Shown here one piece after another: positions 43,022 to 62,084 of a stretch of 64,000 nucleotides of DNA (the stretch's first letter is position 1; each line of letters starts with the position of its first letter). A program made the translations under genes and the position numbers. The stretch lies in IMG/VR virus record IMGVR_UViG_3300046170_000302; one strand, written 5' to 3'. The notes under the pieces are model-generated. The model was not told the DNA's origin. It ran no database searches and saw only the letters and a program-made list of their open reading frames with translations. Source of the DNA: a virus (taxonomy: Duplodnaviria; Caudoviricetes).

Positions 43022-43927
43022 ATGACTAGGGCTAGAGAACTTGCAAAATTAGCTAATTCTTCAATTTTTAGCGTTGACTCCAGCAACAATGTTGGTATCA
43101 ATAGTTTAACTCCTGACGCTAAACTTGATGTTGTTGGTGTCGTCAGTGCCACTCAATACTTTGGTGATGGTTCAAACCTCACTGGTATTGTAGCTGGAGC
43201 TACACTGAACGCCTCAAGTGGAACACAGAGACTTGTAGTCACCAGTCAAACTTCTGGGAGTATGACCCAAGCAGCGACCAACGCTGATATTACATACGCT
43301 ACATCAACTAATACACTGAGTGCCACCACATTCAGTGGAGCATTTTCGGGTAATGTGACAGGTAATGTATCAGGAACTGCTGGAGGATTAACTGGAACAC
43401 CAAGTATTATAGTTCAAGATGTTACAGCTGAAACTGTTTCTGTTGCTGGAACAATCTCATATGAAGATGTAACCAACGTAAACTCTGTTGGTCTTGTCAC
43501 GGCAGGTCTGGGTGTTAGAATTGGTACGGGTGGTACTGTTGGACCCGAGGGTGTTGGTGTTGTCACATACTTCGGTGATGGTTCACAACTGACAGGTATT
43601 GCAGCTGGTATTGGAACAGAATCCTCAACACCATCAAACACAGTAGTTACATTGGATCTTTCTAAACAGGATCATAAACTCAGTGTTACAGGTGTCACAA
43701 CAATCACAGTATCTGGTGGAACAGAAGGAGAAAGTCATACAGTAAGGATTATTAACTCTGCTAGTGGTGTAACAGTAGGATTTTCAACTTACTTCTTATT
43801 CCCATCAGGGTCATCACCGTCATTCCCTTCGGCGAGTGGGGCAATTAGCCTTATGTCATTCACGGTAAATAGGGTAGGAGCAGCAGGAACACAACTCCTG
43901 GCTGGCGCATCACTTAACTTTAGCTGA
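43022..43927 (+). CDS. Short fibre (stalk) protein with a C-terminal docking-like domain
   Basis: MTRARELA start, YEDVTNVNSVG, C-terminal VVTLDLS...FLFPSGS.P...TQLLA...LNFS. Confidence 0.65.
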   Translation: MTRARELAKLANSSIFSVDSSNNVGINSLTPDAKLDVVGVVSATQYFGDGSNLTGIVAGATLNASSGTQRLVVTSQTSGSMTQAATNADITYATSTNTLSATTFSGAFSGNVTGNVSGTAGGLTGTPSIIVQDVTAETVSVAGTISYEDVTNVNSVGLVTAGLGVRIGTGGTVGPEGVGVVTYFGDGSQLTGIAAGIGTESSTPSNTVVTLDLSKQDHKLSVTGVTTITVSGGTEGESHTVRIINSASGVTVGFSTYFLFPSGSSPSFPSASGAISLMSFTVNRVGAAGTQLLAGASLNFS

Positions 43928-46900
43928 GGAGATTAGATAAATGGGAGTATTAATTCCTCAGGTAGTATGTGCTACGGAGTCGGGAGCATCAGGTGCTCAG
44001 GTTATTGATGGTAGTTTGAAGTTTGATAAAAGTAAAACTCAGTTTTTAGAAAAAACATTCAGTAGTGCAGGAAACAGAAAAACTTGGACATGGAGTGGAT
44101 GGTTTAAGCGTGGCACTATTCCAAGTTCAAATAATTTATGGACTGCTTATAATGGTAGTACCAGTGGATTAGACAATTTTGGGCAAATTTATACTGATGC
44201 AGCGGATGGTAGAATTGTCCTTTATCAAGGAGGCGGCGCACAATATAACAGCGAGGCTAGATTTAGAGACCACTCAGGTTGGTATCATATTGTTATATCT
44301 TGTGATGTTACTCAATCTACTTATGCCGATCGATTTAAAATTTATGTTAATGGTGTTCTAAACACTTCATCTAGTGGAACTATCGCTCAAAATACCGATT
44401 TAGCTTTTAATAACAATATTAAACATTACATTGGCACTAGTAACGGTGGTGGTGAACTTTTAGATGGAAATTTAACACAGGTATATTTCATTGATGGACA
44501 AGCACTTGGACCTGAAAGTTTTGGATTTACTGATCCACTCACAAATACTTGGAGACCTAAGAAATATACTGGTAGTGTTAATACACCAGTATCTTTTTCC
44601 AATTTGGCACCAATTTTAAATACAAATTCTGATGGTTCTGCAGTAACAAGTGGAACAAGAACAGATTCCAATAATTCAAATTGGATTTTGGGTCTTGCTA
44701 TGAATACATCTGCAAACATTTATACTGATTTAAGTCCATCTGATGGAGATGCAACAGATTATAGTAATGTAACTGCAAGTACAACTCAAAGCAAATATTA
44801 CGGAACAAGTGCATATTTTAATGGAAGTAATGCAAAATTAATTGTTAATGATAGTAGATTTAATTTCAGTGCCACTAATTTTACAATGGAGACATGGATT
44901 TATGTTCCATCGACTCCATCGGTATCTCAATTAATATTCTGCAGTAGCAATCCCGATTTAATTGGTAGTTCTTCTACTGCTGGGGTTTTAGTTGGATGGA
45001 ATAGTAGCAATCAATTGTTTGTATATGTTGGTTCTGACAATGTTCCATCAATTACTAACAGTGCTGCAACAGCAGTATCTACTGGAAAGTGGCATCATAT
45101 TGCAATTGTTAAAAACGGTGGCACAATAACTCTTTACATTGATGGTAGTGCTTCAGGAACTACTTCATCATCAGTCGGAAATTCTACATCAGGATTTTAT
45201 GTTGCTCATCAACCAGCAAATAATAGATGGCTTCAAGCATATTATCAGGACATTCGTGTATATACAACTGCAAAGTATACATCAAACTTTAGTCTACCAG
45301 CACCTGCAGGTGTAAATGGTTTCTACCTCCCAATGGATGGAAACTCACCAATCGGTCATGACCTATCAAATCCAAATCCAGTCAATAATGGAACTGTTTG
45401 GAGCAGTTCTGTAACAGGTACTCCGTATAACGCTAATCGAGGAGGCCCTACACTTTTTGACGGCGGCGACGATTACGCACAATCTGCTTACCCAGGTGTG
45501 CTTACTTGGACTCCTCCAGGTGGACAAGCATTTTCTACACTTGAACTGGAAGTTTATAGAGATGGATCAAATGCTTTAACTATTGTCCATGCAGGTGGAA
45601 CTACAGACGTTAGTAGTCAAATTTCAAACAGTCAATGGTATAAGTGGACTGTTACTGGGATTACGTCTCCAATAACCAGTATTTCCTGGGCGTCTACTAG
45701 TAACTCTTCGTACATAGCCGCAAGAGCCGTATATATTGATGGTGTAGAATTAATTGATGGCATGTATGGTAATGGTTGGACACCAGTAAACTTTGGTGGT
45801 TCAGTAGCACTTCCTAAAGCAACAGGAGCACTACCAATCCTGAATACTGACGGTGGTGGCAATGTTGCAAGGGTTGGTGTAAGAACTGATGCAAATGCTG
45901 CCAATCTTGTTCTTGCACTTCCACTAGTTGGCAGTAGTGCTGATGTAAGTAATTCAGTTAATAGTGGAAGCACTACAAAGATAATAACTGCTGTTGGTGG
46001 TGCTGCCGCATCAAGTGCTCAAAGTAATTTTTATGGTGGAAGTTTTGTTTATGATGGTAGTGGAGACGCATTAAAATCAACCTCATCAGGATTAACACCA
46101 GGAACATCAGATTTTTGTTGTGAAGGGTGGTTTTACTATAATGCATTACCTAGTTCATCTGCATACAGACTACTTGGAAATGTCAATACAAATGGGAATA
46201 CAACCGATTGGCAATTAATACACGCAACGAATGGAACTTTGACAATATGGAATGGTAGTGGTCATAGTTCACTTGGAGCAGCTCCATTAAAAGCTGGTTG
46301 TTGGAATCATATTGCATATGTTAGGGATGGTGCCACACATAAACTTTATGTAAATGGGGTTCAAATGACTACCACAGTAACAAGAAGTGGTCATGATTTA
46401 ACATTTAATGGACTTGACATTGGTGGTAGAAATGATGGTGCAGAATCTTTTAATGGATACATACAGGATGTTAGGTTCTATATTGGCACTACAAAATACA
46501 CCAGTAACTTTATACCAGCATCAACCTCCCCAGATATTCTTCCAGACACCCCATCAGGTGTGAGTGGTGGTTCTAAACTTGATAAAGTCACTGATGGTGC
46601 TGTTGCTTTTGATGGTAGTGGTGACTATTTGAGTGTTGGAGATAATGCTGATTTTGAACTTGGATCGGGAGATTTTACGATAGAATTTTATGCTTATCCT
46701 AAATCTTTAAGTTCTGATTCTACGGTAATAAGTAAGTACTCAAGTAGTAATAGAAGTTATTTGGTATGGATGAACTCAACAACGGTTTACTTTACATACT
46801 CTACTAACGGAAGTTCAAACGCTGCCAGTCTTTCAGTAACATACTCTGTTCCATTGAATAAGTGGACTCATTTTGCGATGGTTAGAGACGGAAGCACTCT

Positions 46901-49747
46901 CAATATGTTTATTGATGGTACGTTGGTATCGAGTCCATCAATTAGTGGAACTTTATATGATGGTTCCTCTAATCTTCAAATTGGTAGACAAGAGGATGGT
47001 GCTCAATATTATTGGAATGGTTACATTAGTAGTGTAAGACTTGTCAAAGGAACCGCACTATACACTTCTAATTTTACACCGCCAACCAGAGAACTCACTA
47101 ATGTAACCAACACAAAACTACTGTGTTGTCAGTCTAATACTCTTGCTGCTGCTGCTGCGGTTGTTCCAGGTGCTAGTGGTATTAATAATGGAACTGTATG
47201 GAGTTCAAATTTTTCTGGCAATTCACTCCCATACTCAAATTATGCTTATTCAATACCGAAATGCATTTGACGGAAGGTACTTCCACATTTGCGATGATTG
47301 CTGCTAGTAATGGTGATATTTTATCAACAATAGTAACTCTTCCAGGACTTACTTCTGGACATAGTGTAGAATTTTATGCTGAAAAGAATACAAATGCAGG
47401 AAATTTAACATTTAACGGGAGTGTCGTTTCTGGACTAACATCTTCTGCTGGTTGGGTAACTGCTGGAAATGCAAATGGAACATCTGACAACTTTGTCATG
47501 AATCCCAATCCGGGACAATCAACTTCAGATGCTATAAAAATATATGCTGTCAGGGTTAATGGAATTATTCTTGTAGATCTAATTAAAGCAAACGGAAACA
47601 CATTCCGTGGAGCAACCACCTTCAACCCATTCACAACTGATATAAATGCAGTTCGTGGACAAGAGACTGGTTATTGTACGATGAACCCTTTAGACAAAGG
47701 CAGTACCATTGTCTTGTCAAATGGAAACTTAGTTTTTTCCAGAAACAGTGGAGGATGGGCCAACTCTGGCGGTCGTGGAACGTTTGGTGTTTCCAGTGGT
47801 AAATATTATTGGGAATTTGTCAAAAATGATTCCGCAGCTTATACGATATTTGGCGTAGCAGTAAGTGAAGCAAGTTTTTCAGAGGATTATGGAGCACCAA
47901 ACAACGAAACTTGGAGTTATATATCTAACAGTGGAAATAAATTAGGTGACAGTTATGGTGGTGCGGGTGCCTCTTATGGCGCAAGTTTTACCGCTGGCGA
48001 TGCCATTGGTGTTGCTTTAGACGCTGACACAGGAACTTTATCGTTCTATAAAAATGGTGTAAATCAGGGTATAGCTTTTTCTACATTAAGTGGCAAAACT
48101 TTATTTCCTCATATTGCTGTTTATGGTGCTACGGACAGTGCTACTACAAACTTTGGTCAAAAACCCTTCAAGTTCCCACCACCAGCAGGTTTCCAACCAT
48201 TGAACCTTGCCAATATACGTCCAGAGACTGTGATTACACATCCTGATAAGTATGTTGGGGCAACCTTATGGACTGGTAATGATACTGCAAGAACAATATT
48301 AACGGGTAATGCTCCAGATTTTGTTTGGATTAAACAAAGAAACAACAATGGTGCAAACATGTTATTTGATAGTGTTAGAGGTGCAACAAAGCGTCTTGTT
48401 TCTAACCAAAACCTTGCAGAAGGTACTGTGCAAGGTGTGACATCTTTCAATTCAGATGGATTCAACTTGGGGAACGATGCTGATTGTAATTGGGGAGGTA
48501 AAACCACTGTTGGTTGGACTTGGAGAGCTGGTGGAAGCAAAGGCAACTTTAATGTTGATGATGTAGGGTATGAAAATGCCTCTGATGTGGGAATGAATGT
48601 TGGTGGTCAGAATAGTAATGCTTATGATCAAACTCGAACTTGGAGCAATTCAGTAGCCGCTGATGGTGGCAGCACCTTTGTTTCCAACCAAGGCCCAACC
48701 AAGATGTTTAACGGCGTGGCTGGGATGGGCGTCGAAAAGACTGAACTAACAAGTAACGGCAGCGCAACATTCACCTCTCCAGTTCAGCTATCAGGCAATC
48801 TTCGTATGTTTATTGCTTGTGGATCGAGAGGGTCTTCAGCAACCGGAACTTTTGATTTAAAGCTTGACGGAGTTTCTGTTTTTAACAACAGCACATTTCC
48901 CAATAATGCAGGTGCGTGGGTTGATTTTGGCACTAAAACATGGACTACGTTGCAATTTGGTACAGCAACAGGTGGTAACTGGTTGGGAATTTCTGCGATC
49001 GAAGTGGCAGGCAAACTTTTAGTAGATAATGGAGTGTCTGTTACAAATGCCCCATCAATCGCTAATGCTGGCGCATCTGTTGGAACCAAGCAAGGATTTA
49101 GTATTATTAAATTTACAAATACTACTAGTGATTCCACTCAATCTCATGGTCTTACACAAAAACCAGATTTTATCATATGGAAGAAAACATCTGGCACCAG
49201 TCACTGGGGAGTTTATCATTCATCTCTTGGTGCGACAAAAGTTTTGTACTTGAACCTTACTAATGCTGCTTCTACTGGTAGTGAATTTTGGAACAATACT
49301 GAACCCACTAATAGTTTAGTTACAACAAGAGCAGAACCTCATTCCTTTGGTTCTGCTGGAGATACGATTATGTATGTGTGGCACAACGTCCCCGGACTAC
49401 AGAAATTTGGATCCTGTAAAGGTTCGGGAGCATCTGCTGCACCAGATTTCGTTGAATTGGGATTTAAACCATCTATAGTATGGGTGAAGAGAACTGATAA
49501 CACAGGTAATTGGACAGTATGGGATTCTACTAGAAATACATTCAATCCTTCACAAAAACAATTGTTCCCAAATACCAGTGGAACAGAACAAGATTTGTCT
49601 GTTGATGCGATAGACATATTGAGTAACGGATTTGCTATTAGAAGTTCAAGTTCACTCACCCAAACTGGTTCTCAGACTTACATCTACTGTGCATGGGCAG
49701 AAGCACCAACAGTTAACTTGTTTGGAGCCCAATCCAATGCAAGATAA
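43792..49747 (+). repeat. Copy A of a diverged stalk + LamG/SPRY two-gene duplication (copy B 56914-62084)
   Basis: Exact shared boxes, e.g. 44529-60 = 57693-724, 45314-52 = 58130-68, 46537-68 = 59308-39. Confidence 0.8.
43941..49747 (+). CDS. Large LamG/SPRY-domain tail-fibre or receptor-binding protein A (~1930 aa), frameshifted near 47250
   Basis: Repeated LamG motifs (FT.E.W, WHH.A.V, YQDIRVY), SPRY-like (GKYYWEF, IGVALD), ends AWAEAP..NLFGAQSNAR. Confidence 0.75.
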
Positions 49748-49767
49748 ATAACTAAAAAGATATCGCC

Positions 49768-50464
49768 ATGGCTCTTGGTAGACCCTATATCACTAACAAA
49801 TAATGTAGCATCTAAGATCATCAGGCTTCTAGCTACCAACAACCAAACTGTCTTCACAGTTCCAGGTGGGTATCGTATTAACCAGATTGGTGTTTTCAGA
49901 AACGGTGTTAGATTATCTAATAATAGTGATTTCACAGCACTTGATGGTTCAACTGTAACTCTTGTCAATGCTGCACAAACAAATGATGAAGTCCTGTTTG
50001 AAATTCAGGATGATTTTAGAGTAGCTGATGCTATTGTATCAGCAGCTTCCACACAAACAATCAGTGGTGACTTAACTGTTACTGGAACTGTTTATGGTGC
50101 TATTGTTGGAGTTAACTCTGGTGGTATTGCAATTGGTGAAGCTAAAACACTAAACTTCATTGGTAGTGGTAACACCTTCGCACAGAACGGTGATACTATT
50201 GATATCTCCATCTCTGGTGGTAGTGGAGGAGGTGGTCTAGGAACCGCCATCAACTACAGTGATGAAACACCCACACCATTCAGTTACATTGACTCACATG
50301 TAACTGTAACTAGTAACCTACTGATTGATACAGAGAACGCTGGATTAACCACATCCTATGTTGTATCAGTTGTTCCAAATGTTGAAGTTGCTTCTGGTGT
50401 TGCACTTACCGTTGGAACTGGTAAGACTATGATTATTGATATCCTACAGATCGGAGACCTCTGA
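49768..50464 (+). CDS. Short fibre (stalk) protein, frameshifted near 49786
   Basis: ATG 49768 after TAAATAACTAAAAA; removing one C gives MALGRPISLTNNVASK; VFRNGVRL...DFTA.DG. Confidence 0.6.
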
Positions 50465-50769
50465 TGTCAAAAATAATTACAAATAATATCACTCCCCGTA
50501 GTGGTAGTAGTGTAGGACTTACTGGTGACTTAGTAGCCAGTGGAAGTATTACTGGAACTACAGGAACTTTTAGTGGTTCTGTATCAGTTGGTGGCACCAT
50601 CACCTATGAAGATGTAACTAACGTCGATTCAGTCGGTATCATTACTGCTCGTAGTGGTATTGTTGTTACAGGTGTTGTTACCGCTACTAGTTTTGCTGGT
50701 GATGGATCAGCACTTACAGGTGTTGAGAGTTGGAATCAATTTGACACCTGGCTATATGGTGGCGGTTAA
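50464..50769 (+). CDS. Short fibre-like protein
   Basis: ITYEDVTNVDSVG, VTATSFAGDGSALT. Confidence 0.6.
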   Translation: MSKIITNNITPRSGSSVGLTGDLVASGSITGTTGTFSGSVSVGGTITYEDVTNVDSVGIITARSGIVVTGVVTATSFAGDGSALTGVESWNQFDTWLYGGG

Positions 50770-50797
50770 TCTTACTAAATAACTAAAAAGAAAAGTC

Positions 50798-51160
50798 ATG
50801 GCACTGGAAAGGGGAAAACTTACTAATGTGGTACAGGTCGCAGCAGGTGCTACTGTTGCTATGATTACTTGTGCCTCTTCTAAGAAAGTTTATATTAAAT
50901 CAATCATTTGTCATGCATCTGGAACTGGAATAGCAACTGCTACCGCCCAGGTTTATTTTGTTCCTAATGGTGGAAGTGTTTCTTCAACAAATAAAATCTT
51001 TGATGTTGATGTGGTATCAGGAGAAACAGTATTAATCGAACCATCATATCCTCTTGTATTGGATACAACTGGTGATAGTCTGCGAGTTGGAACAGGAAAT
51101 GTTACTGGAATTGCAGCAACTCACGTAAACTTCATCATTACTGGCGATAAGGAGGCTTGA
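50798..51160 (+). CDS. Small adaptor-like virion protein
   Basis: Paralog of 38040..38444. Confidence 0.6.
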   Translation: MALERGKLTNVVQVAAGATVAMITCASSKKVYIKSIICHASGTGIATATAQVYFVPNGGSVSSTNKIFDVDVVSGETVLIEPSYPLVLDTTGDSLRVGTGNVTGIAATHVNFIITGDKEA

Positions 51161-51163
51161 TAC

Positions 51164-52252
51164 ATGGCACCATTTAAGTCATCACTTGCAAGAAGTGCAG
51201 GAAAACTCCTTGGTGTCTTTAGACAAGCAGATTTATCATTAAGAGGTGCTACTCAGATTAGTAGACGGATAGTACTACCTATGACTACTGCTAGTGGTGG
51301 AACTACATATACCATCGGAGATTATAAGTATCATATCTATCAACAACCACAGACTGGAGGAACTCTTAATGTTTCTACTGCTGGTGAAGCAGAGATACTT
51401 GTTTTATCTGGCGGTGGTTCTGGTGCTCCTGACCAAATGGGTGGAGGTGGTGGAGGAGCAATTGTTTTTACAAACAATCCTGTAGATTTAGAAGCAATTA
51501 ATTATTCTATCACCGTTGGTAGTGGCGGTGCATACTCACCATATCCTCAATATGGTGCAGGACAAAGAGGTCAAAATTCTGTATTTGGATCATCTCCACA
51601 AAATATCTATCTAATTGCTTTAGGTGGTGGTGGAGCAAAGAACCCTGTTTCACTTCCTCAATCATACGCAGATAACGCTGGATGTGGTGGAGGGGGTGGT
51701 CCTGGTGTTAATGGATTTCCAGCATCTCAACCTGGTCAATCACAGACAGCACCTACTCCAGTAGTTAGTCAGGGATTTCAGGGAGGAGCACACCCTGGAA
51801 ATGCTGGTACTAACACAAGCGGTTCTGGTGGTGGTGGCGGTGGTGCTGGTACGGTAGGAAGACATGGTGGTCCACCAGCTCCAGCACCAACTAGAGGAGT
51901 TGGTGGTGATGGATACCAAGTTCCATCAGATTTCTTGCCTACAAGTGCTCCAGGTGCTATGGCAACCACTTTGGGTGGAATTCCTACTGGTAATGGTGCT
52001 TGGAGATATTTTGGTGGCGGTGGTGGAGGATCAGATAATAACAACAACGGTGGAACATCAAGAAACTTTGGTGCTCCCGGTGGATTAGGTAATCCTGGTG
52101 GAAGAGGAGCGCAAGACCCTGGACCAGGGGGAGTTGGAGGAAGTCCTGGAACTGCTCATAGGGCAGGTGGAGGTGGTGGTGGATCCACACATAGTGGTAT
52201 TGGTGGTGCCGGTGGGTCTGGAATAGTTATGGTAAGATACAAGTATCAGTAG
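51164..52252 (+). CDS. Glycine-rich adhesin-like protein, single domain
   Basis: EILVLSGGGSG, poly-Gly tracts, GGSGIVMVRY end. Confidence 0.72.
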   Translation: MAPFKSSLARSAGKLLGVFRQADLSLRGATQISRRIVLPMTTASGGTTYTIGDYKYHIYQQPQTGGTLNVSTAGEAEILVLSGGGSGAPDQMGGGGGGAIVFTNNPVDLEAINYSITVGSGGAYSPYPQYGAGQRGQNSVFGSSPQNIYLIALGGGGAKNPVSLPQSYADNAGCGGGGGPGVNGFPASQPGQSQTAPTPVVSQGFQGGAHPGNAGTNTSGSGGGGGGAGTVGRHGGPPAPAPTRGVGGDGYQVPSDFLPTSAPGAMATTLGGIPTGNGAWRYFGGGGGGSDNNNNGGTSRNFGAPGGLGNPGGRGAQDPGPGGVGGSPGTAHRAGGGGGGSTHSGIGGAGGSGIVMVRYKYQ

Positions 52253-52907
52253 TAATATTTTTTTGAAGACCACTTCTAGTAAAATATAAACTATTAAATT
52301 TTGTCGGCAAACAATTAAAGGAAAGAGAAAGTCTTCCCTCTTTGTTTGTTGGCAAATAACTGTGCTTTAAATAAGAAGGCCATAATAAAATAGTTCCATT
52401 AGATACTTCTGTTTGTATTTGTGTATTGTGAAATGCATATCCCAATTTGTTTTCTTCTTGTGATGGATTGTCAACCATGATATTTCCTGTTGAAGAAGAG
52501 TTTTCATAAGGACTATGGAAAACTAAAAAATCTTCACCAACGTCAATAAACAAAGTTCCAGATATGACAGAGTTGCAGTGATTGTGAACGTATTGCCAGG
52601 ATCCTTTTTTAGCATAGTTAAACCATGCATCAGTTACTTCTAGATCTGTGATGTGATTCATCACATTTTTATATACAAAATTTGAATATTTTTTAATCTT
52701 TTCCTTCAACCAGAGTAATCTACGATACTCATCAAAAACTTCTCTATAATGAATGAGAGATTGGCATTCATCATTAATATACTTGCCATTATACTCTTTT
52801 CCTCTTATATTGGAAAAGAAAAAAGATTTTACTTTTTTATTTTCATCTTCAGTAATCTGCATAGATACTACAGGAACTGGAAAAAACGAGGCAACTTGGT
52901 GTTCCAT
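52227..52907 (-). CDS. 2OG-Fe(II) oxygenase (TIGR02466-like), AT-rich, antisense to the cluster
   Basis: DAWFN, HNHCNSVISGTLFI, GTILLWPSYLKH, RLSLSFN. Confidence 0.75.
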   Translation of the reverse strand: MEHQVASFFPVPVVSMQITEDENKKVKSFFFSNIRGKEYNGKYINDECQSLIHYREVFDEYRRLLWLKEKIKKYSNFVYKNVMNHITDLEVTDAWFNYAKKGSWQYVHNHCNSVISGTLFIDVGEDFLVFHSPYENSSSTGNIMVDNPSQEENKLGYAFHNTQIQTEVSNGTILLWPSYLKHSYLPTNKEGRLSLSFNCLPTKFNSLYFTRSGLQKNITTDTCILP

Positions 52908-52934
52908 TCTTAAAATTATTTTCTATATTATATC

Positions 52935-53486
52935 ATGAACTTAAAAAATGATAAAGTTATATCTGTAAAGGAAAAACATAATATATTAATTTGTCAATAT
53001 CCATTTTGGGAATCTCTTAATCCAAAACTTCACGTCCTTATAAAAAATTTTCCAGATGAATATCAAAAAAATACAAATGTAAAAGCAAAAATGACTCACT
53101 ATTGTGTCATAAATCAAGAATTTGAAAAAATTGGAAGATGGGTATATCAAAAATTACCATCTATTTGCCCTCAAGGTTTAAATACAACATCTAAATTTAA
53201 ATTAATAGATATTTGGGGTGCTTTATATAATGAAAATGACTATGCGACTTCTCATCAACATAGACCTTTAGCGTACTCATTTGTTTATTTTGTCAATACT
53301 CCAAAGAATTCTTCTCCTTTAGTATTTAACTCATCAAATACTAAAATAAATCCAGAATCAGGAAAATGTGTTATTTTTCCTTCTTGGTTAGTTCATAGTG
53401 TTCCAAAAAATAAATCTAAAGAAAGAAGTGTGATAGCAGGAAATTTTGCATGGATGTCAGAAGATACCCCATATAGATTTAATTGA
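52935..53486 (+). CDS. 2OG-Fe(II) oxygenase (TIGR02466-like), AT-rich
   Basis: DIWGALY, HQH..AYSFVYFV, GKCVIFPSWLVHSV, RSVIAGN. Confidence 0.78.
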   Translation: MNLKNDKVISVKEKHNILICQYPFWESLNPKLHVLIKNFPDEYQKNTNVKAKMTHYCVINQEFEKIGRWVYQKLPSICPQGLNTTSKFKLIDIWGALYNENDYATSHQHRPLAYSFVYFVNTPKNSSPLVFNSSNTKINPESGKCVIFPSWLVHSVPKNKSKERSVIAGNFAWMSEDTPYRFN

Positions 53487-53816: not shown

Positions 53817-53844
53817 TAAATAGACAAAAGAGGTATTGTAGGTA

Positions 53845-54246
53845 ATGGCTGCTCCAAATATAGTAAACGTTACAACTATCACAGGGGTAACCACTTTTCA
53901 TGCTGGTATCGCTGTAACCACTGGAGGAAGAGGTTCTCTAGGTATCACGACTGTGGTGTCAAATGCCGCATCAAGTGGTAAGGTATTAAAGATTAATTCA
54001 CTGGTTGCAGCAGGTATAGCAGCAACCACTGGAGTTACTCTTCAGTATTTTAACAATATTAATCATGTATCTGCGAGTAGTACAGTATCAATTGGTATGA
54101 CATTATCAGTACCAACATTCTCCACACTTGCACTCATTACCAAAGACAACTCAGTGTATCTGGAAGAAAATACTTCACTTGGTATTTTTGCACAACCAGC
54201 AACAGGAACTATTGACGTAGTTTGTTCATACGAAGAAATTAGTTAA
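53845..54246 (+). CDS. Small adaptor-like virion protein
   Basis: MAAPNIVNV..ITG, GKVLKINSL, K...VYLEE, IDVVCSYEEIS. Confidence 0.6.
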   Translation: MAAPNIVNVTTITGVTTFHAGIAVTTGGRGSLGITTVVSNAASSGKVLKINSLVAAGIAATTGVTLQYFNNINHVSASSTVSIGMTLSVPTFSTLALITKDNSVYLEENTSLGIFAQPATGTIDVVCSYEEIS

Positions 54247-54258
54247 GGAGGATAAACC

Positions 54259-56304
54259 ATGGGATATCTAGGCAGACGCATAGGTTTATCACAAGACAAC
54301 GGAGATTCTAATCCAGGAGCATCAGGTGGTGCTGTTGGTGGTGGAATATTAGATTTATTTGCACATGGATATTTTGAGAGACAAGGAGATCTTTACAATG
54401 CTCCTGGTTCTTCAGCACTAGTAGGTTTAACAGCAACTGGTGGTGCGATTAGTGATTATATTTCTGGTACTGATGTTTACAGAGCACATGTCTTTACTTC
54501 ATCAGGAACTTTTGATGTAAGTGCTTTAACAGATAATGTTCCAAGTGGGAATAGTGTTGAGTATCTTGTAGTTGCTGGCGGAGGTGGTGGTGGTGGATCA
54601 TTTGGTGGTGCCGGAGGTGCTGGTGGTTTAAGAACTAATTTAACAGGTCATCCATTAACTGGTGCAGCATTTCCAGTATCAGTATCTTCATATACGGTAA
54701 CTGTTGGAGCTGGTGGTGCTGGTAACCCAGATCGTAGTAGAGGAGCAAAAGGAGTCGATTCAGTTTTTGGATCTATAACATCAACTGGTGGTGGTTTTGG
54801 TGGAGGAAACGACAGTGGTGTACACCCAGCAGGACCTGGTGGTTCTGGTGGTTCTGGTGGTTTATCTGGTGGAGCAGGAACACCAGGAAATGGAAATGAT
54901 CCACCAGTTTCTCCGCCACAAGGAAATAACGGCGGTACATCAATTGATGCTGGTACATATGCTGGAAACTGCACTGGTGGTGGCGGTGGTGCTGGAGCAG
55001 TAGGCACAAATGCTTCTTCCCCAGGAGTTGGAGGAGCAGGTGGTGCTGGTGTTCAGGTTGCAATTGCAGGACCAGCTGCTGATACAACTGGTGTTGGAGC
55101 AATAAACCCAGGACCAGGACAATATCAATGGTTTGCAGGTGGTGGCGGTGGTCACAGTGGAGAAGTATCAGGACGAACTAGATCTTCTGGTGGTGTAGGT
55201 GGCGGAGGACAAGGTGGAATCAGTAATGGTGCTGTCCTAGGACCCAGAGTTGGATTACCTGCACAATATGCTACAGGTGGTGGCGGTGGTGCTTCTGGTG
55301 GTGGTAATCCTAGTCCTGGTGGTTCTGGTGGTTCCGGTATTGTAGTTGTAAGGTATAAAATAGCATCAGTAGCAACTACAAAAGCAACTGGTGGTGCTAT
55401 TAGTTTCTATAGTAATAAGACTATTCATGCCTTTAGAAGTTCTGGTACTTTTACCGCCCCAGGCACTTTTGATGAAACAGTAGAGTATGTTGTAGTTGGT
55501 GGTGGTGGCGGAGGTGGTGGTACTGCCCCCGGACCCAACACTGCTCATGGTGGCGGTGGTGGTGGCGCAGGTGCATATAGAACAGCTTCTATTCCTCTTG
55601 CGGGTCCATTTACTGCTCCAGTTACTGTTGGTTCATCTGGGTCTGGTGGAGTTGGGTCAAACAATGGCGCAGACGGTGGAACAACTACTTTTGCAGCACC
55701 AACGTCAATCGTGTCCCCTGGTGGTGGTGGCGGTGGTTATGGACAACCTGGTGCAAATGTTAATGGAACATCATCTCCTGGTGGATCTGGTGGTGGTGCT
55801 ACAAGAATAATTGGTTCTGCTCCTGGTTCAGGATCTTATGGTAATCCTGGTGGTTACCGAACACCAGCTGTTAATGACCAGGGTGCTGGTGGTGGCGGTG
55901 GTGCTGGTGGTGCTGGTGGCAACTATGGTGGTCCTGCACCTTATCACACAGGATATGGTGGACTTGGTGTCCGACTCCCCGCAACATTTCAATTTGATGG
56001 TAATTTAGGATACCCTGGACCGGGAAGCACTCATTCTTGGGTTGCTGGCGGTGGCGGTGGCGGTGCTGGCGACAATGCCAATGGTCCTGTAACTAATGCA
56101 TCAGGTGGTCCGGGTGGTGCAGGTAGTTCGAGTGCAGGTCCGTTCGCAGGTGCTGGTGCCGGAGGAAGTCATATAAACAATGGAGGATCAAACGCTGAAG
56201 TTAATTCTGGATCTGGTGGTGGAGGAGATGGTCCTGGTCCCGCATCTCCCAAGACAGGTTCTAATGGTGGTTCCGGTATTGTCCTCATTGCATATCCTAC
56301 CTAA
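54259..56304 (+). CDS. Glycine-rich adhesin-like protein with two tandem domains
   Basis: Paralog of 38447 and 40387; ends GSGIVLIAYPT. Confidence 0.75.
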   Translation: MGYLGRRIGLSQDNGDSNPGASGGAVGGGILDLFAHGYFERQGDLYNAPGSSALVGLTATGGAISDYISGTDVYRAHVFTSSGTFDVSALTDNVPSGNSVEYLVVAGGGGGGGSFGGAGGAGGLRTNLTGHPLTGAAFPVSVSSYTVTVGAGGAGNPDRSRGAKGVDSVFGSITSTGGGFGGGNDSGVHPAGPGGSGGSGGLSGGAGTPGNGNDPPVSPPQGNNGGTSIDAGTYAGNCTGGGGGAGAVGTNASSPGVGGAGGAGVQVAIAGPAADTTGVGAINPGPGQYQWFAGGGGGHSGEVSGRTRSSGGVGGGGQGGISNGAVLGPRVGLPAQYATGGGGGASGGGNPSPGGSGGSGIVVVRYKIASVATTKATGGAISFYSNKTIHAFRSSGTFTAPGTFDETVEYVVVGGGGGGGGTAPGPNTAHGGGGGGAGAYRTASIPLAGPFTAPVTVGSSGSGGVGSNNGADGGTTTFAAPTSIVSPGGGGGGYGQPGANVNGTSSPGGSGGGATRIIGSAPGSGSYGNPGGYRTPAVNDQGAGGGGGAGGAGGNYGGPAPYHTGYGGLGVRLPATFQFDGNLGYPGPGSTHSWVAGGGGGGAGDNANGPVTNASGGPGGAGSSSAGPFAGAGAGGSHINNGGSNAEVNSGSGGGGDGPGPASPKTGSNGGSGIVLIAYPT

Positions 56305-56324
56305 ATAACTAAAAAGTAGATAAG

Positions 56325-57052
56325 ATGTCACAGCTCTACGTTAACAATATTAAGAGTCGAGTGGGTGGAGCTGTTAGTTTCACTCAGGGCATCATTAGTG
56401 CTGGAGCAACCTTCAGTGGGAAATGTATCGGTTGGTGGGAACACTGACCGTATGAGATGTAACCAATATTGACTCAGTTGGTGTTGTAACTGCTAGAACA
56501 GGAATTAAAGTTCTCGCAGGTGGTATTAATGCAGTTGGTGTTGTAACTGCTACTAGTTTTTCAGGTGATGGATCAAGTCTTTCTGGTGTTGTTTCTGGTA
56601 TTGAAGTTAAATCTGGCGGATCATCAGTAGGTACATCACTTACAGCAATTAATTTCTCTGGTGCTACAGCTAGTACTGGGTCTGCTGGAATTACAACGAT
56701 TACTATTGCTGCTGCAGGTATCAACACAACAGCATCATCACCATCAGCAAATACAGTTGTTACACTAAATTTAAGCACAGCACAACATCATGACCTGACA
56801 CTAACAGCAGGTATTACAACAATTACTTGTAGTGGTGGTAGTTTTGGTGATTCGCACTCAGTTGTGATAAGTCAACCATCATCAGGTATTGCTACTGTTG
56901 GGTTTAGCACATTCTTCTTATTCCCATCAGGGTCAACACCAAGTATGTCAACAGGAAGTGGTAAGGTAGATTTAGTTTCATTTGTAGTGAAACGAGTAGG
57001 CGCAGGAGGGACACAGTTACTAGCATCTGCTGGTCTCAACTACAGCAACTGA
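56325..57052 (+). CDS. Short fibre (stalk) protein, paralog of 43022..43927; frameshifts near 56420-56460
   Basis: MSQLYVNNIK start; NIDSVGVVTA; C-terminal VVTLNLS...FLFPSGSTP...TQLLASAGLNYSN. Confidence 0.55.
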
Positions 57053-57065
57053 GGAGGATAGATAA

Positions 57066-60000
57066 ATGGGAGTATTAATTCCGAGTTTACAGTCAGGACT
57101 TCTTAATCAGTCTAGTGCTCAAATAGTTGATGGTAGTTTGAAGTTTAATGAAACATCAGGTAGTTATCTAACTAGAACTCCAAGCTCTAATGGAAATAGA
57201 AAAACTTGGACTTGGAGTTGCTGGTGTAAGATTGCAAAACTTCCAGTAAGTGGAACAAATGGTGATAGAACTTTGTTTTCCGCAGTTGATACTTCAAATG
57301 GTGGTGATGACGATGCTATAAGATTTATTAGATCTGGAATAACTGGAGGGCAGAGTTTATATTGGAGTTCCTCTGAGTATAATGTAGGGGATGAAGAAGC
57401 AATATACACAAATGCGGTTCTACGCGATCCTAATGCGTTTTATCATGTAGTTCTTATAAAAGATACAACACAATCAAGTTTGGCTAATGGTCAAATGAGA
57501 ATGTATATTAATGGAGTAGAACAATCATTAGTTGAATCAAATGCTATTTCGCAAAATGCAGAAAGAGCTATAAATTCACAAATCCCACATGCCATTGGTG
57601 ATCATTATGGTCAAGATAGACCATGGGATGGAATGATGACTCAGGTCTATCTAATAGACGGATTATCACTTGGTCCTGGATATTTTGGATTCACTGATCC
57701 ACTCACAAATACTTGGAGACCTAAAAAGTTTAAAGCAGAGGGAACGACTTTAAATGATGGTACTGTTTGGAGTTCTAAGGTAACAGGAGCAAATAATCCA
57801 GCAAATGCATTTGATGGAAGTCTATCCTCAAATATGGATAATAATGGTTCTGCTGGAACACCTATTGTTCTAACGGCATCTTTCACAAATGTAACCTCAT
57901 TTAGATACTATACAAGTAATAGCAGTGCTCATGATGTTTCATTTAGTGGAGGAAGTGTAACAACTGATGCGGCATCATCTGGCTGGAGAACTGTTTCTGC
58001 ACCTTCATCAATAACTTCAATATCATGGATTCATTCAAATGAACCGGCTGCGTATGTTGTAATAGAGGCAATTGAAATTAATGGAGAAATTTTAAGAGAT
58101 AGCACTACAACAAACCTTGCCTTTGGAACAAATGGTTTCTACCTCCCAATGGATGGAAACTCACCAATTGGAGAAGATAAATCTGGTAGAGGAAACAACT
58201 GGACACCATCAGGATTTGGTGGTTCTTTAGAACTTGGTAATCCAAATGTATCTGGTGCAAAACCAATCCTGAATACTGATGGTGGTGGTAATGTTGCAAG
58301 ACCTGGTGTATTTGGTAGTGAAGTAGGAGCATATTATGCAGTTACTGTTGCATCGGTAGGTGGTGGAAACAGATATCACTTTGATGGAGTAGATAGACCT
58401 AATCCCACACTAATTCGTGGTGCAACATATACCTTCGACCAATCAGATAGTTCTAACTCTGGTCATCCACTCAGATTTGCCACAGCTGCTGATGCTGCTG
58501 GAAGTTCACAATATACTGATGGTGTTGTAACAAATGGAACACCTGGTTCTGCTGGTGCATATACCAAGATTACAGTTCCACATAATGCACCAAATACCTT
58601 ACATTATTATTGCACAAATCACGGTGGTATGGGAAGCTCTACTTCTCAAACCACTGATGAAACCAAAGCAGACCCTTATGCCTGGAAGAATACTCTTGCA
58701 CTTCCATTAGTTGGTAGTGCTAATGATGTAAGTAATTCTGTTAATAGTGGAAGCACGACAAAGACAATTACTGTTTCTGGTCCGGTTGCCTCAACTGTTC
58801 AAAGTAACTTTTATAGTGGTAGTTTTGTATTTGATGGTTCTAATGATAGAATAATTACTGCAACTGATGCATCTCTGGAATTTGATGGAGATTTTACTTT
58901 CGAAGCATGGGCTAATAGAACTGCAACTGGAAGAGAGTGTTTATTTGCACAATGGCTTAACTCTTCAAGTGCTAATAGGTGGAGACTTGAATTGGATAAA
59001 ACCAGCGGTAAGGTTACTTTTGTTGATGGAGAGAGCAATGAACAATCATTTACTTATACAAGCGGTGTAGGAACATGGAATCACTGGGCTATCACCCGTA
59101 GTGGTAATACTGCATATATTTTTGAAAATGGAAATCAGATTGGGACATGGACCAGTACTACAAATCTTGGAAACGGAGGAGATTTTACTGTAGGAAATAC
59201 TGAAGATGGAGGGCTTTGGTGGCAGGGATATATACAGGATGTAAGAGCTTATAAAGGAGTAGCAAAATACACCAGTAACTTTGTAGTTCCCGCAACCTCC
59301 CCAGACGTTCTTCCAGACACCCCATCAGGTGTGAGTGGTAGTTCTAAACTTACTAAAGTCATTGATGGTGCTGTGCATTTTGATGGAACTGGTGACTATT
59401 TGAGTCTTGCTGATAGTGATGATATTGACTTGACTGGAAGTATTAGTTTTACAGTTGAGGCATTTATCTACAAAAAGGATAGTGCAGAGGATCAAATTTT
59501 TGAATTTAGAGGTGGAGGATCTACAGGATGGACTTTATATACCACAACAAGTAATACTCTTCAGATATATGACTCTGTTGCAAATACTCAAGTTGGAACA
59601 TCAACGGGAAAGATCATTCCAAACGCATGGAATCATATTGCTCTGACCAAGAATGGTAGTGGATCTAACAATTGTGACTTTTGGATTAATGGAGTAAATT
59701 CTGGAACATTTAGTTTAGCTTCCTTTGCAACAACAGATAGTACTGGACTTCGTATTGGTGCATCTAAAGATACTTCGGCATTCTTTACTGGGTTTATGAG
59801 TAATGTTCGTATCCTCAAAGGAACCGCACTTTATACCTCAAACTTCACACCATCAACAACACCACTCACTAATGTAACCAACACAAAACTCCTGTGTTGC
59901 CAGTCTAATACTTCTGCTAATTTAACAGGAGTATCACCAGCAACTTTCAGTAATGATGGAAGAACATATAGTTCAGGTGTAACATTCTCTCCAGGAGTAT

Positions 60001-62084
60001 TGAGTTCAACTAGAGGTGGTGATAAAGCATTTAATGGCACAATCTCTGATAATGCCTCAGCATCTACTAATAATCCTTCACTTTTGACTGCATCTTTTTC
60101 AGCAAACCTTACTGGAGTTACATCTTTAAAAATATACAGTGGTTCTAATAGTTCTAATGCTTATATTAATGGTGCATCAGGTAGTACTGTTTCAATTACA
60201 GCAAACAACTGGACTGACTTAACATCATTAGCATCTGGTGCAAGTGGAACTATCAGTAGTATATCGGTTGTAACTGCTGGAGATAATGCACAGTTAGCTG
60301 CTGTAGAAGTTAATGGTTGTATTCTTGTTGATGGACTTGTGGGAGAGGCATTGGTAAGAGTAGGAGACACAGCAGCAACCAACTTCAACCCATTCAACAC
60401 TGATATAAACACAGTTCGTGGACAAGAGACTGATTATTGCACTATAAATCCATTAGATGGATATGTTTCCACGAAAGATGGAAACCTGGAGACATCCACA
60501 AGTAGTGGATGGCAGAGTATTAGAGCAACACTTGGAATGAATTCTGGTAAGTTCTATTGGGAAACTCAAAACAACCAAGATGCTTCAGCAATCCTTGGAA
60601 TTGCTGATTCGGAAGCAACAGGGTTTGTGGATGGAAGTATTTTTGGCAGTACTGGTCATGGAGGCGGAGATGCAAATCCTGCATATACTTGGGCAGGTGC
60701 GAACTACTACTTTAATGCAACTACAGCAGGCACCGGACTTTCAAACCATGTTCCTTCAGATGTTGTTCAGTATGCGTTTGATGCTGATAGTGGTAAACTT
60801 TGGTTTGGAAGAAATGGTGTTTGGTACAGTTCCTCTTGGGGAACCACTGGAAACCCTGCGGGTGGTTCTAACGCAACAGTGAGTGGCATAAACACTACTA
60901 AGACATATCTTGCCTGTGCTTCCTTTTATAATGGTTCAGGTAAATTTAACTTTGGACAAAAACCCTTCAAGTTCCCACCACCTGATGGTTTCTCACCACT
61001 GAATGCTGCTAATGTTCTTCCAGAGACTGTAATTACACGTCCTGATAAGTATGTTGGGGCAACAATTTGGGATGGAACAGGATCAGCAAGAAGCATAGAT
61101 ATTGGTACACAACCAGACCTAGTTTGGGTTAAAGTAAGAAATCATACTTATTATCATTATTTGGTTGATTCTGTCAGAGGAGCAGGAAAAGAATTAAACT
61201 CAAACACAACCGACGATGAATATACGGACACCAGCAATATATCTGCATTTAACGCCAACGGATTTAGTTTGGGAACTGGGGCTGGTGTAAACCAATCTGG
61301 TGGAAAAAATTATGTGGCATGGTGCTGGAAAGCTGGTGGAAACAAAAACACCTTTAATGTTGATGATGTAGGTTATGCAAGTGCTGCTGCGGCAGGATTA
61401 GATGGTGGAAATATTAATCCTAACCGTGCATCTGTTGGGACCAAGCAAGGTTTCAGTATCATAAGATATACTGGGACCGATGCAACATCAAATACTTTTT
61501 CTCACGGATTGACCCAAAAACCAGATTTTGCAATATTTAAGAATACATCTCAAGATGGAGACGATTGGATTGTATATCACTCCTCTATAGGAGCAACAAA
61601 GAGACTAAAATTAAACTCATCTAATGCAGCTGATTCTCAAACCTCTCAATTCAATGATACCGAACCAACATCGTCAGTGTTCACCATTGGAACCTATGAT
61701 AATATTAATAAACTGAATAATAATTATATCAGTTACATATGGCACAATGTCCCCGGACTACAGAAATTTGGTTCCGTTGAAACGGTTAGTGACGTTGGGT
61801 ATGCTGAGATAGGATTTAGACCAGCACTTGTAATCTTTAAAAATATAGATGCCAGTTCGAGTTGGTCCATTAGAGATAATAAAAGAGTCCCGTATAATCC
61901 CAATGACATATTATTGAGGGCAGATACAGCCGGTGAAGACTTTACAAGCAGTGGAAAAGTAGATTTTCTCTCTAATGGGTTTAAGATTCAAGGTAGTGGT
62001 TTTGGCAGTTATACATATATCTACGCAGCATGGGCAGAAGCACCAGCATTTAACTTGTATGGCGCACAGTCAAACGCCAGATAA
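57066..62084 (+). CDS. Large LamG/SPRY-domain tail-fibre or receptor-binding protein B (1672 aa) with a cupredoxin-like insert
   Basis: Intact ORF, paralog of 43941..49747; GHPLRF...YCTNHGGM. Confidence 0.8.
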   Translation: MGVLIPSLQSGLLNQSSAQIVDGSLKFNETSGSYLTRTPSSNGNRKTWTWSCWCKIAKLPVSGTNGDRTLFSAVDTSNGGDDDAIRFIRSGITGGQSLYWSSSEYNVGDEEAIYTNAVLRDPNAFYHVVLIKDTTQSSLANGQMRMYINGVEQSLVESNAISQNAERAINSQIPHAIGDHYGQDRPWDGMMTQVYLIDGLSLGPGYFGFTDPLTNTWRPKKFKAEGTTLNDGTVWSSKVTGANNPANAFDGSLSSNMDNNGSAGTPIVLTASFTNVTSFRYYTSNSSAHDVSFSGGSVTTDAASSGWRTVSAPSSITSISWIHSNEPAAYVVIEAIEINGEILRDSTTTNLAFGTNGFYLPMDGNSPIGEDKSGRGNNWTPSGFGGSLELGNPNVSGAKPILNTDGGGNVARPGVFGSEVGAYYAVTVASVGGGNRYHFDGVDRPNPTLIRGATYTFDQSDSSNSGHPLRFATAADAAGSSQYTDGVVTNGTPGSAGAYTKITVPHNAPNTLHYYCTNHGGMGSSTSQTTDETKADPYAWKNTLALPLVGSANDVSNSVNSGSTTKTITVSGPVASTVQSNFYSGSFVFDGSNDRIITATDASLEFDGDFTFEAWANRTATGRECLFAQWLNSSSANRWRLELDKTSGKVTFVDGESNEQSFTYTSGVGTWNHWAITRSGNTAYIFENGNQIGTWTSTTNLGNGGDFTVGNTEDGGLWWQGYIQDVRAYKGVAKYTSNFVVPATSPDVLPDTPSGVSGSSKLTKVIDGAVHFDGTGDYLSLADSDDIDLTGSISFTVEAFIYKKDSAEDQIFEFRGGGSTGWTLYTTTSNTLQIYDSVANTQVGTSTGKIIPNAWNHIALTKNGSGSNNCDFWINGVNSGTFSLASFATTDSTGLRIGASKDTSAFFTGFMSNVRILKGTALYTSNFTPSTTPLTNVTNTKLLCCQSNTSANLTGVSPATFSNDGRTYSSGVTFSPGVLSSTRGGDKAFNGTISDNASASTNNPSLLTASFSANLTGVTSLKIYSGSNSSNAYINGASGSTVSITANNWTDLTSLASGASGTISSISVVTAGDNAQLAAVEVNGCILVDGLVGEALVRVGDTAATNFNPFNTDINTVRGQETDYCTINPLDGYVSTKDGNLETSTSSGWQSIRATLGMNSGKFYWETQNNQDASAILGIADSEATGFVDGSIFGSTGHGGGDANPAYTWAGANYYFNATTAGTGLSNHVPSDVVQYAFDADSGKLWFGRNGVWYSSSWGTTGNPAGGSNATVSGINTTKTYLACASFYNGSGKFNFGQKPFKFPPPDGFSPLNAANVLPETVITRPDKYVGATIWDGTGSARSIDIGTQPDLVWVKVRNHTYYHYLVDSVRGAGKELNSNTTDDEYTDTSNISAFNANGFSLGTGAGVNQSGGKNYVAWCWKAGGNKNTFNVDDVGYASAAAAGLDGGNINPNRASVGTKQGFSIIRYTGTDATSNTFSHGLTQKPDFAIFKNTSQDGDDWIVYHSSIGATKRLKLNSSNAADSQTSQFNDTEPTSSVFTIGTYDNINKLNNNYISYIWHNVPGLQKFGSVETVSDVGYAEIGFRPALVIFKNIDASSSWSIRDNKRVPYNPNDILLRADTAGEDFTSSGKVDFLSNGFKIQGSGFGSYTYIYAAWAEAPAFNLYGAQSNAR

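Follow-up and report, generated by a model that had tools for sequence, protein, structure and literature searches.

Conserved DNA joints separate diverged, probably exchangeable domains in the tail-fibre genes of marine T4-like phages

The DNA stretch analyzed here, referred to below as the window, comprises 64,000 nucleotides (nt) of the viral record IMGVR_UViG_3300046170_000302 (Caudoviricetes) and has a G+C content of 40%; all positions are those of the whole window. It contains two long genes, A and B, which belong to a large modular tail-fibre family of marine T4-like phages and in which diverged domains (cassettes) alternate with short segments conserved at the DNA level, termed joints here (Table 1). 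A PHROGs scan revealed a baseplate hub gene (gp5-like) and tail-fibre families upstream of the fibre genes. The gp5 homologue of the window is about 40% identical to its counterparts in Synechococcus phages, and the neighbourhood consists of T4-like myovirus structural genes. Cultured cyano- and pelagiphages encode homologues of A and B with about 30% identity; the annotations of these homologues, for example in PSS2, Syn1, ACG-2014e, and RB11-B, are those of fibre or virion structural proteins. Judging from these annotations and from their location in the structural module, A and B are predicted to encode tail-fibre or virion proteins.

Pfam analysis of the pieces between conserved stretches identified one domain per segment in both genes. 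Gene A matches LamG_3 (241.7 bits), SPRY (71), and DUF7483 (259), all above the gathering scores; gene B matches LamG_3 (136.9) and DUF7483 (268.5), and its SPRY score of 20-23 bits is below the cut-off. A sequence search of PDB yielded weak LamG and SPRY-type matches only and no solved relative. The aligned parts of the two proteins are 36-40% identical, and the domains between the conserved stretches differ in sequence, number, and length, as a preliminary description of this DNA had noted. Thus, B has an extra cassette between joints I3b and I3c (58311-58694), and A has one of about 400 nt between I7 and I8a.

The preliminary description had also listed nine exact matches between the two genes. 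All of them were verified, eight at their full lengths (boxes 1 to 8 in Table 1) and the ninth as a 23-nt string at 43935 and 57060, which covers the stop codon, a GGAG ribosome-binding site, and the ATG. The offsets of the boxes are colinear; owing to the frame change of gene A near 47260, they shift by 1 modulo 3 from box 6 on. When the codons of B were redrawn from codon usage in 2000 trials under a constant A/B protein alignment, the coding alignment contained a mean of 0.09 exact runs of at least 22 nt and a maximum of three. Seven such runs were observed (39, 32, 32, 27, 26, 24, and 23 nt), a number reached in 0 of the 2000 trials, and the exact boxes therefore exceed both chance and amino-acid conservation. 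They are peaks within 14 colinear blastn segments of 42-209 nt with 66-98% identity. The peptides encoded by the boxes are the most conserved ones (FGFTDPLTNTWRPKK, NGFYLPMDGNSPIG, ILPDTPSGVSG, LTNVTNTKLLCCQSNT, NFGQKPFKFPPP, PDKYVGAT, and WHNVPGLQKFGS).

In total, 12-13 colinear joints of 40-200 nt with 66-98% A/B identity were delineated, each encoding an inter-domain connector. Contrary to the earlier statement that boxes lie at every domain border, boxes 7 and 8 are within DUF7483 and not between Pfam domains, and box 1 is in the 3' end of the upstream gene. Conservation extends beyond the earlier-listed boxes, with joints at 45777-46058, 47611-47694, 48521-48579, 49073-49192, and 49676-49747; joint I6 spans the end of SPRY to the start of DUF7483. 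In an AlphaFold model of the segment from I4 through LamG to I5, residues 35-190 form a confident jelly roll, and the joints (residues 1-34 and 202-220) have a predicted local distance difference test score (pLDDT) <50. In this monomer model, the low-confidence joints would fit linkers or parts that fold only in an oligomer. Joint I5 (47109-47135, 59880-59906) carries a near-invariant LTNVTNTKLLCCQS motif with two adjacent cysteines, present in about 15 genes; a disulfide, a metal site, or an oligomer contact are possible roles of these cysteines.

Each joint sequence is unique within its gene, none being repeated, so that exchange is kept in register. The only clear internal repeat able to permit out-of-register exchange is a 20-nt direct repeat (19/20 identical, coding for NNGTVWS) at 45384-45403/47184-47203, with which two small, unnamed domains of A begin (slots I3-I3b and I5-I5b).

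Table 1. Genes, joints, and exact A/B matches of the fibre region (window positions; aa, amino acids; ORF, open reading frame; x, variable residue)
Feature	Position	Strand	Position in B	Content	Basis
Upstream gene, 301 aa	43022-43927	+		Repeated xYFGDGSxLTGI motifs; last ~45 codons (from 43792, including box 1) are part of joint I0	ORF list, translation
Fibre gene A, first ORF, 1109 aa	43941-47270	+		LamG, extra segment + LamG, unknown 136-aa domain, LamG, LamG, start of small domain	Pfam on whole ORF and inter-joint pieces
Frame break in gene A	47255-47280	+			Three-frame translation
Fibre gene A, second ORF	47261-49747	+		Rest of unnamed ~150-aa domain, SPRY, DUF7483 with inserted domain of ~135 aa	Pfam, alignment to B
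B-locus homologue of upstream gene	56325-57052	+		Frameshift-broken in the window	tblastn, ORF list
Fibre gene B, 1672 aa, one ORF	57066-62084	+		LamG, unnamed 134 aa, extra 128-aa cassette, LamG, LamG, unnamed 152 aa, SPRY, DUF7483	Pfam, alignment to A
Joint I0	43792-44120	+	56914-57230	3' end of upstream gene, stop, ribosome-binding site, ATG, first ~60 codons (MGVLIP..GNRKTWTWS)	
Joint I2 (box 2)	44460-44575	+	57627-57727	FGFTDPLTNTWRPKK	
Joint I3 (box 3)	45300-45360	+	58130-58171	NGFYLPMDGNSPIG	
Joints I3b + I3c	45771-46067	+	58200-58310 and 58694-58838	LPILNTDGGGNVAR; LALPLVGSxxDVSNSVNSGSTTK	
Joint I4 (box 4)	46490-46690	+	59226-59432	KYTSNF..PDILPDTPSGVSG..DGAVxFDG	
Joint I5 (box 5)	47031-47150	+	59815-59918	KGTALYTSNFTPPT..LTNVTNTKLLCCQSNT	
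Joint I5b	47601-47697	+	60374-60457	FNPFxTDINxVRGQETxYCTxNPLD	
Joint I6 (boxes 6, 7)	48141-48290	+	60948-61141	NFGQKPFKFPPPxGFxPLN..PETVITxPDKYVGAT	
Joint I7	48501-48640	+	61326-61384	WxWKAGG..FNVDDVGY	
Joint I8a	49041-49130	+	61428-61550	ASVGTKQGFSII	
Joint I8 (box 8)	49371-49410	+	61740-61787	WHNVPGLQKFGS; inside DUF7483	
Joint I9	49671-49747	+	62013-62084	C-terminus; YIYxAWAEAPxxNLxGAQSNAR	
Box 1	43792-813		56914-935	22 nt exact; in 3' end of upstream gene	
Box 2	44529-60		57693-724	32 nt exact	
Box 3	45314-52		58130-68	39 nt exact	
Box 4	46537-68		59308-39	32 nt exact	
Box 5	47093-119		59864-90	27 nt exact	
Box 6	48158-83		60957-82	26 nt exact	
Box 7	48241-64		61040-63	24 nt exact	
Box 8	49388-410		61749-71	23 nt exact	

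The lower synonymous divergence claimed for the boxes was confirmed for the joints as a whole. Nei-Gojobori (NG86) estimates for A versus B are 0.61 for synonymous (dS) and 0.26 for nonsynonymous (dN) divergence in the joints, as against a dS of 1.56 and a dN of 0.85 in the cassettes, so that dS in the conserved segments is not that of the genes at large. Similarly, at residues identical in A and B, the same codon is used with a frequency of 0.70-0.79 in conserved blocks (expected 0.44-0.47) and 0.42 in poorly conserved zones (expected 0.43), and the cultured phage SynMITS9220M01 follows the same trend (0.65 in conserved blocks vs 0.42-0.44 elsewhere, n=74). Among the columns of protein-guided alignments in which residue conservation reaches 85% or more, those in joints have a codon homozygosity of 0.74 (n=233) and those within cassettes one of 0.54 (n=75; p = 3e-11). 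The conserved blocks of the fibre genes have more codons in common with the window than blocks of neighbouring genes do at 22 of 25 loci (mean +0.10, Wilcoxon p = 3.6e-5), the values at four-fold sites being 0.69 and 0.53, respectively. Codon optimisation fails to explain the fixation, since the fixed codon is the genome-preferred one in 92 of 193 columns. These tests indicate that the joints are either younger by descent than the cassettes and the backbone or constrained as DNA.

They also bear on a rival explanation, that the joints are simply strongly constrained peptides with biased codons and that the cassettes diverged in place under diversifying selection. All boxes do encode the most conserved peptide motifs, and the conserved blocks of other genes likewise beat the codon-usage expectation (0.59 vs 0.44). 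However, conserved residues within cassettes are near-random in codon choice (0.54), and cassette synonymous sites are saturated whereas those of the joints are not. Moreover, one and the same slot holds different folds, different lengths, or nothing, which is beyond point mutation, and cassettes of 87-99% identity are found in otherwise different genes, clonal isolates included. Protein constraint as the only cause is largely refuted by these data, and we consider it very unlikely.

For a wider comparison, a search with the upstream gene retrieved 47 viral loci, and 22 further fibre genes were extracted, most of them from metagenome-assembled viral contigs. With 0-4 mismatches, the boxes of the window reappear at about 20 loci, where their order is kept and their spacing varies; thus other phages do keep the same nucleotide boxes with different domain content (about 20 fibre genes), as had been proposed. 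The nucleotide similarity of gene A to 23 other fibre genes is limited to 12-13 islands, each present in 10-19 genes, and none was detectable between the islands. Four slots (I2-I3, I3-I3b, I5-I5b, and I6-I8) are filled in some genes, with about 350-1370 nt, and vacant in others, where 16-63 nt separate the joints; the fibre gene of locus L038 lacks the first LamG. In IMG/VR, the exact 39-mer of box 3 occurs only in the closest relative, the contig G001, and the boxes are therefore conserved with few mismatches rather than letter for letter. Among cultured phages, a megablast search gave no match for gene A and a single 44-nt match, at box 2, for gene B. Joints I2, I5, and I9 are conserved at the nucleotide level in the isolates SynMITS9220M01, Syn1, and S-RIM44, with a 93% match of I2 in SynMITS9220M01 and an 81% match of I5 in Syn1 and S-RIM44.

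The extra cassette of B (128 aa) has no Pfam match. Part of its DNA (58442-58637) is 68% identical to a part of a tail fibre gene of the Pelagibacter podophage EXVC032P Baldr, which hints that cassettes are common to groups of phages that differ in their hosts.

Fibre genes that are unrelated elsewhere share tracts of 87-97% identity, which extend from one joint to another. Such tracts extend from I3c to I4 in L012 and L027 (727 nt, 97% identical), from I8a to I8 in L026 and L038, and from I0 to I2 in L028a and L035. The L018 gene is a chimera, resembling L028b from I3b to I4 (93%) and L028a from I4 to I5 (89%), with the breakpoint in I4. The ends of high-identity tracts fall in joints in 22 of 28 cases versus 25% expected, a result equalled in 0 of 5000 permutations and in line with the suggestion of the preliminary description that the conserved boxes serve as crossover points for whole domains. 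In addition, the pairwise distances of different joints are uncorrelated (mean Spearman 0.09), and the nearest relative of A differs joint by joint.

The same picture emerges from the comparison with G001, whose backbone matches that of the window with 96% identity across about 30 kb, whereas its fibre genes are mosaics with different bodies. The stretch 42421-44108, including the upstream gene, is 93% identical in G001, and tracts of this identity end at 44108 and at 57229, both in I0. B and G001 share a tract of 90.5% identity that begins with the first base of box 3 (58130); a tract of 88% identity between A and G001 (49026-49410) ends at the last base of box 8; and backbone identity of 97% returns at 49658, in I9.

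As a clonal check, we analyzed cultured phages isolated on Synechococcus sp. MW02 (RB11-B, RN05-S, and S-B43). The fibre genes of RB11-B and RN05-S are 95-97% identical over most of their length, with no similarity in two gaps the size of a cassette, 3392-3773 and 3864-4323. Positions 3329-3884 of RB11-B (L062) are 99.1% identical to S-B43, and RN05-S has a replacement there. The zones common to these cultured phages fall in the joint homologous to I3c. The alternation of islands and cassettes, the deficit of synonymous divergence in the joints, and the sharing of cassettes with their ends in joints are all direct observations, the last of them also in cultured isolates, and the comparisons argue for exchange junctions in or near the conserved motifs. 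We infer that the crossovers occur by homologous recombination within the joints and that cassette swaps would change host range. The cassette common to RB11-B and S-B43 (99%; loci L062, L063, and L065) is carbohydrate-binding-like and about 128 aa long; in S-B43 it lies N-terminally.

In principle, the identity of the boxes or the mosaic itself could stem from the assembly, if strains present together were collapsed or joined into chimeras. The comparison contigs are themselves metagenome assemblies, and in the window clustered 1-nt indels at about 47257-47277 and at 56423-56455 differ from metagenome contigs. The 31-mers of gene A were detected in 12 studies (20 seawater, marine, or cave runs). 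Against an artefact, exact-k-mer contigs (k=31) from four seawater metagenomes of four different studies reproduce cassettes at 100%. Contigs with 0 mismatches to single cassettes (44000-44564, 44544-45338, 45329-45806, and 57049-57704) enter the boxes from both sides. Among the listed ends of such contigs in A and B, nearly all lie in joints, including joints with <31 exact A/B nt; hence identical joint sequences adjoin alternative cassettes within one sample. Clonal genomes of cultured phages show this architecture too, including a 99% cassette swap, and three joints are conserved in isolates, as described above. Misassembly collapse is thus an unlikely source of the box identity, and an artefact as the general explanation is highly improbable.

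The two indel clusters deserve a separate comment. At the frame break in gene A, frame 0 reads YSIPKCI and a stop, frame 1 NAFDG, and frame 2 GTSTFAM; NAFDG is a motif of the family (compare KAFNG in B) and stands at the expected distance after GTVWSS. The second ORF is listed with starts at 47198/47261 and an end at 49747. The break fits two 1-nt insertions about 20 nt apart. An otherwise identical metagenome contig with a depth of 3.8x is 2 nt shorter across it (1052 over 1054 nt; 0 mismatches, 2 gaps, the gaps being placed only to 46587-47640), and a second, 96%-like contig is 5 nt shorter. Since 2 and 5 nt are both 2 modulo 3, the two ORFs would fuse; gene A in the population is probably one gene of about 1930 aa, and its copy in the window is either broken or mis-sequenced. 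The counterpart of the upstream gene at the B locus contains one in-frame stop (tblastn match of 45% identity across 216 aligned positions), and a metagenome contig differs there by four 1-nt indels at 56423, 56439, 56449, and 56455. The two clusters suggest local consensus errors of the source assembly.

In the preliminary description, the boxes were seen as homogenised crossover points for domain swaps between paralogs or co-infecting phages. In a concerted-evolution model of this kind, gene conversion between A and B within one genome would keep the boxes identical, and they would act mainly as A-B crossover points. In agreement with this, the nearest relative of A is B at 4 of 13 joints (I3, I3c, I7, and I8), about one being expected by a rough estimate. 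I3, I3c, I8, and perhaps I4 stand out in A-B identity, which reaches 0.98 in I3, 0.97 in I8, and 0.83 in I3c, near the top of the family range. Likewise, the L018 chimera joins cassettes most like those of two paralogs, L028a and L028b, of another phage. Yet the A-B identity of most joints (0.69-0.87) is within or below the range for other phages (means 0.72-0.92), with I0 (0.69) and I9 (0.80) below the mean. Moreover, the nearest relative of B is A at only 1 of 13 joints, the overall joint dS is 0.61, the same boxes with 0-4 mismatches occur in about 20 other contigs, and G001 retains both genes with no deletion or A/B hybrid. Thus some local exchange between A and B is suggested, likely as a small extra contribution at I3, I3c, I7, and I8, and homogenisation of the paralogs is at most a minor component; we regard it as unlikely to be the principal cause.

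The deletion or chimeric forms that direct repeats 13 kb apart might generate were not reliably detected in the four metagenomes. The sole candidate for a 13-kb A/B deletion or hybrid (43759->56885) was seen in two runs with a short side of only 22-27 nt, and two further junctions (58762->46023 and 61346->48548) are short contigs inside joints; none of the three was counted as evidence.

The comparison with a shufflon could not be upheld. The repeats are direct, lie in two separate genes, and give no sign of programmed or frequent rearrangement; no inverted repeat unit was seen, the boxes being colinear and each different in sequence. Shufflon identity is ruled out by the lack of a recombinase in the ORFs scanned, the direct and mutually different repeats, and the lack of inversion. 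The recombinase-free nature of the locus did stand: no recombinase was detected with Pfam and PHROGs in 18 ORFs at about 38.4-63.5 kb, around and between A and B, and no reverse transcriptase domain of a diversity-generating retroelement was found in the neighbouring ORFs. There is no long near-identical repeat pair within or adjoining A and B, whose cassettes differ in fold and length. A diversity-generating retroelement is ruled out by the lack of a reverse transcriptase in these ORFs and of a template/variable repeat pair.

Alternatively, the boxes could be functional nucleotide elements, such as RNA structures, internal signals, or recombinase sites, and the excess conservation of synonymous sites is the one observation in favour of this. 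The joints have no Rfam matches, and the folding energy of seven of them is ordinary (z -1.4 to +1.0). Domain scans of genes lying between A and B and on either side detected no recombinase, integrase, or reverse transcriptase, and the boxes are direct repeats with a different sequence each. We find this explanation exceedingly improbable.

The above analysis suggests that population-wide homologous recombination at position-specific joints swaps whole fibre domains, and we hold this to be the probable explanation. The fibre protein would be composed of beta-sandwich domains that fold independently (LamG, SPRY, DUF7483, and small unnamed domains) and are linked in a row by about 12 position-specific joints, each connector being made up of a linker together with the strand that ends the preceding domain and the strand that opens the following one. 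During co-infection, general homologous recombination, by phage or host machinery and without a dedicated recombinase, would cross over inside the DNA-conserved joints, and a crossover would replace, add, or remove the whole cassette between two joints in frame and register. Repeated exchange would uncouple the joints from ancient, diversely selected cassettes and would keep the synonymous sites of the joints less diverged than those of cassettes or of conserved parts of backbone genes. The exact A/B matches of 22-39 nt would then be peaks of family-wide conservation.

Several points weigh against domain exchange of this kind. No crossover was directly observed, and the joint dS of 0.6 is above zero, so that exchange must be infrequent on the time scale of a lysate. 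Only about seven shared cassettes were found, and clustering of cassettes at 80% nucleotide identity gave mostly singletons. Exact identity is short (22-39 nt) within flanks of about 80% identity and is a poor substrate for homologous recombination. The joints encode the most conserved peptides, and protein constraint accounts for much of their nucleotide similarity. Finally, short-read assemblies can join the cassettes of different strains across joints or pick the majority joint sequence; therefore some recombinants and part of the joint similarity could arise in silico.

A further possibility is second-order selection, by which the synonymous sites of the joints are held constant because standard joints permit cassette exchange. 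It is consistent with the prediction that the joints are non-globular linkers (pLDDT <50) and yet the most conserved parts of the gene in both protein and codons, with fixed codons that are often non-preferred (ATA, CTA, CGT, TTC, and AAC), and with the uniqueness of every joint sequence within the gene. However, identity by descent through gene flow would yield this pattern with no selection on DNA at all, a low pLDDT of a monomer is no proof of disorder since the linkers may form an oligomeric shaft, and the joints do carry synonymous variation, common to genes in patches. We therefore entertain such selection as a doubtful alternative. Equally tentative is the idea that the joints are an evolved standard, about 12 distinct DNA addresses common to marine myoviruses globally and partly to other marine phages. 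Under such a recombination standard, any cassette would drop in frame into the matching slot, like the overhangs of modular cloning.

Outside the two fibre genes, four glycine-rich paralogs (38447-40360, 40387-41961, 51164-52252, and 54259-56304) match phrog_2295, and the two of them scanned with Pfam (51164-52252 and 54259-56304) contain PF21722. These paralogs have nucleotide blocks in common with each other and with several places in G001, and they may follow the same pattern of islands and cassettes. A spike of metagenome depth (up to about 2000) is located at 55369-56019, with many loose ends at 55884-55919. Between the fibre genes, two 2OG-Fe(II) oxygenase genes are encoded on opposite strands at 52227-53486. 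This segment has the lowest metagenome depth of the region and is absent from G001; it thus has the appearance of an accessory insert of variable occurrence.

What is chiefly lacking for uncultured phages of the ocean is knowledge of their host recognition. If domain exchange at joints is true, the joints could serve as universal primer or anchor sites to amplify, phase, and catalogue receptor-binding cassettes from seawater with long reads, and the cassettes of a gene could act as a barcode of host range. The joints would also mark natural in-frame splice points for the construction of chimeric fibres in cultured Synechococcus phages, with which the binding partner of each domain could be sought. 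The architecture of joints and cassettes accounts for short-read assemblies of these abundant phages breaking or turning chimeric in the fibre region.

Variable cassettes flanked by short conserved segments and exchanged by homologous recombination are known from the pilE/pilS minicassettes of Neisseria and from vlsE of Borrelia, where gene conversion from silent copies within one genome is programmed, frequent, and one-way. In contrast, both A and B are full genes, and exchange apparently occurs mainly between phages and on evolutionary time scales. In the IncI plasmid shufflon, the site-specific recombinase Rci acts on inverted 19-bp sfx repeats in one locus. There, too, alternative adhesin-like segments (C-terminal in the shufflon) are combined via short repeats, whereas the repeats in A and B are direct and each different, with no recombinase and no inversion seen.

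No papers on DUF7483 were found, and we found no description of the joint/cassette architecture in the literature on cyanophage LamG fibre mosaics. In marine cyano- and pelagimyophages, tail fibres and concanavalin-A-like receptor-binding proteins are encoded in a hypervariable island, the host recognition cluster (Zaragoza-Solas et al. 2020, PMC7029224). This cluster resembles the present locus in the kind of phage and the genome region, a large non-syntenic island in the structural module. The variability described in that study is at the level of genes; nucleotide-conserved intragenic joints or the exchange of domain cassettes are not described there.

By analogy, the closest known system is the gp37/gp38 adhesin of T-even phages, in which glycine-rich motifs (GRMs) lie between hypervariable segments (Tetart et al. 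1996, 1998; Trojet et al. 2011, PMC3157838) and exchanges occur within or near conserved motifs (PMC3157838). In both cases, conserved syntenic motifs alternate with hypervariable segments (12-13 joints in about 20 genes here), in a host-recognition protein and without a dedicated recombinase. The likeness is one of mechanism and not of family, the Pfam domains here being LamG_3, SPRY, and DUF7483. The variable units of gp38 are loops in one small domain with five motifs and four segments, whereas in the A/B family entire folded domains (110-450 aa) vary; its genes are 5-6 kb long and have about 12 joints, and its slots may be empty or filled by non-homologous domains. For gp38, exchange and its effect on host range were shown experimentally, whereas the evidence for the A/B family is comparative. 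Recombination at conserved motifs in fibre genes is thus already known from T-even phages; novel aspects here are its scale, its action on entire domains, the existence of optional slots, and a synonymous deficit in the joints that can be measured.

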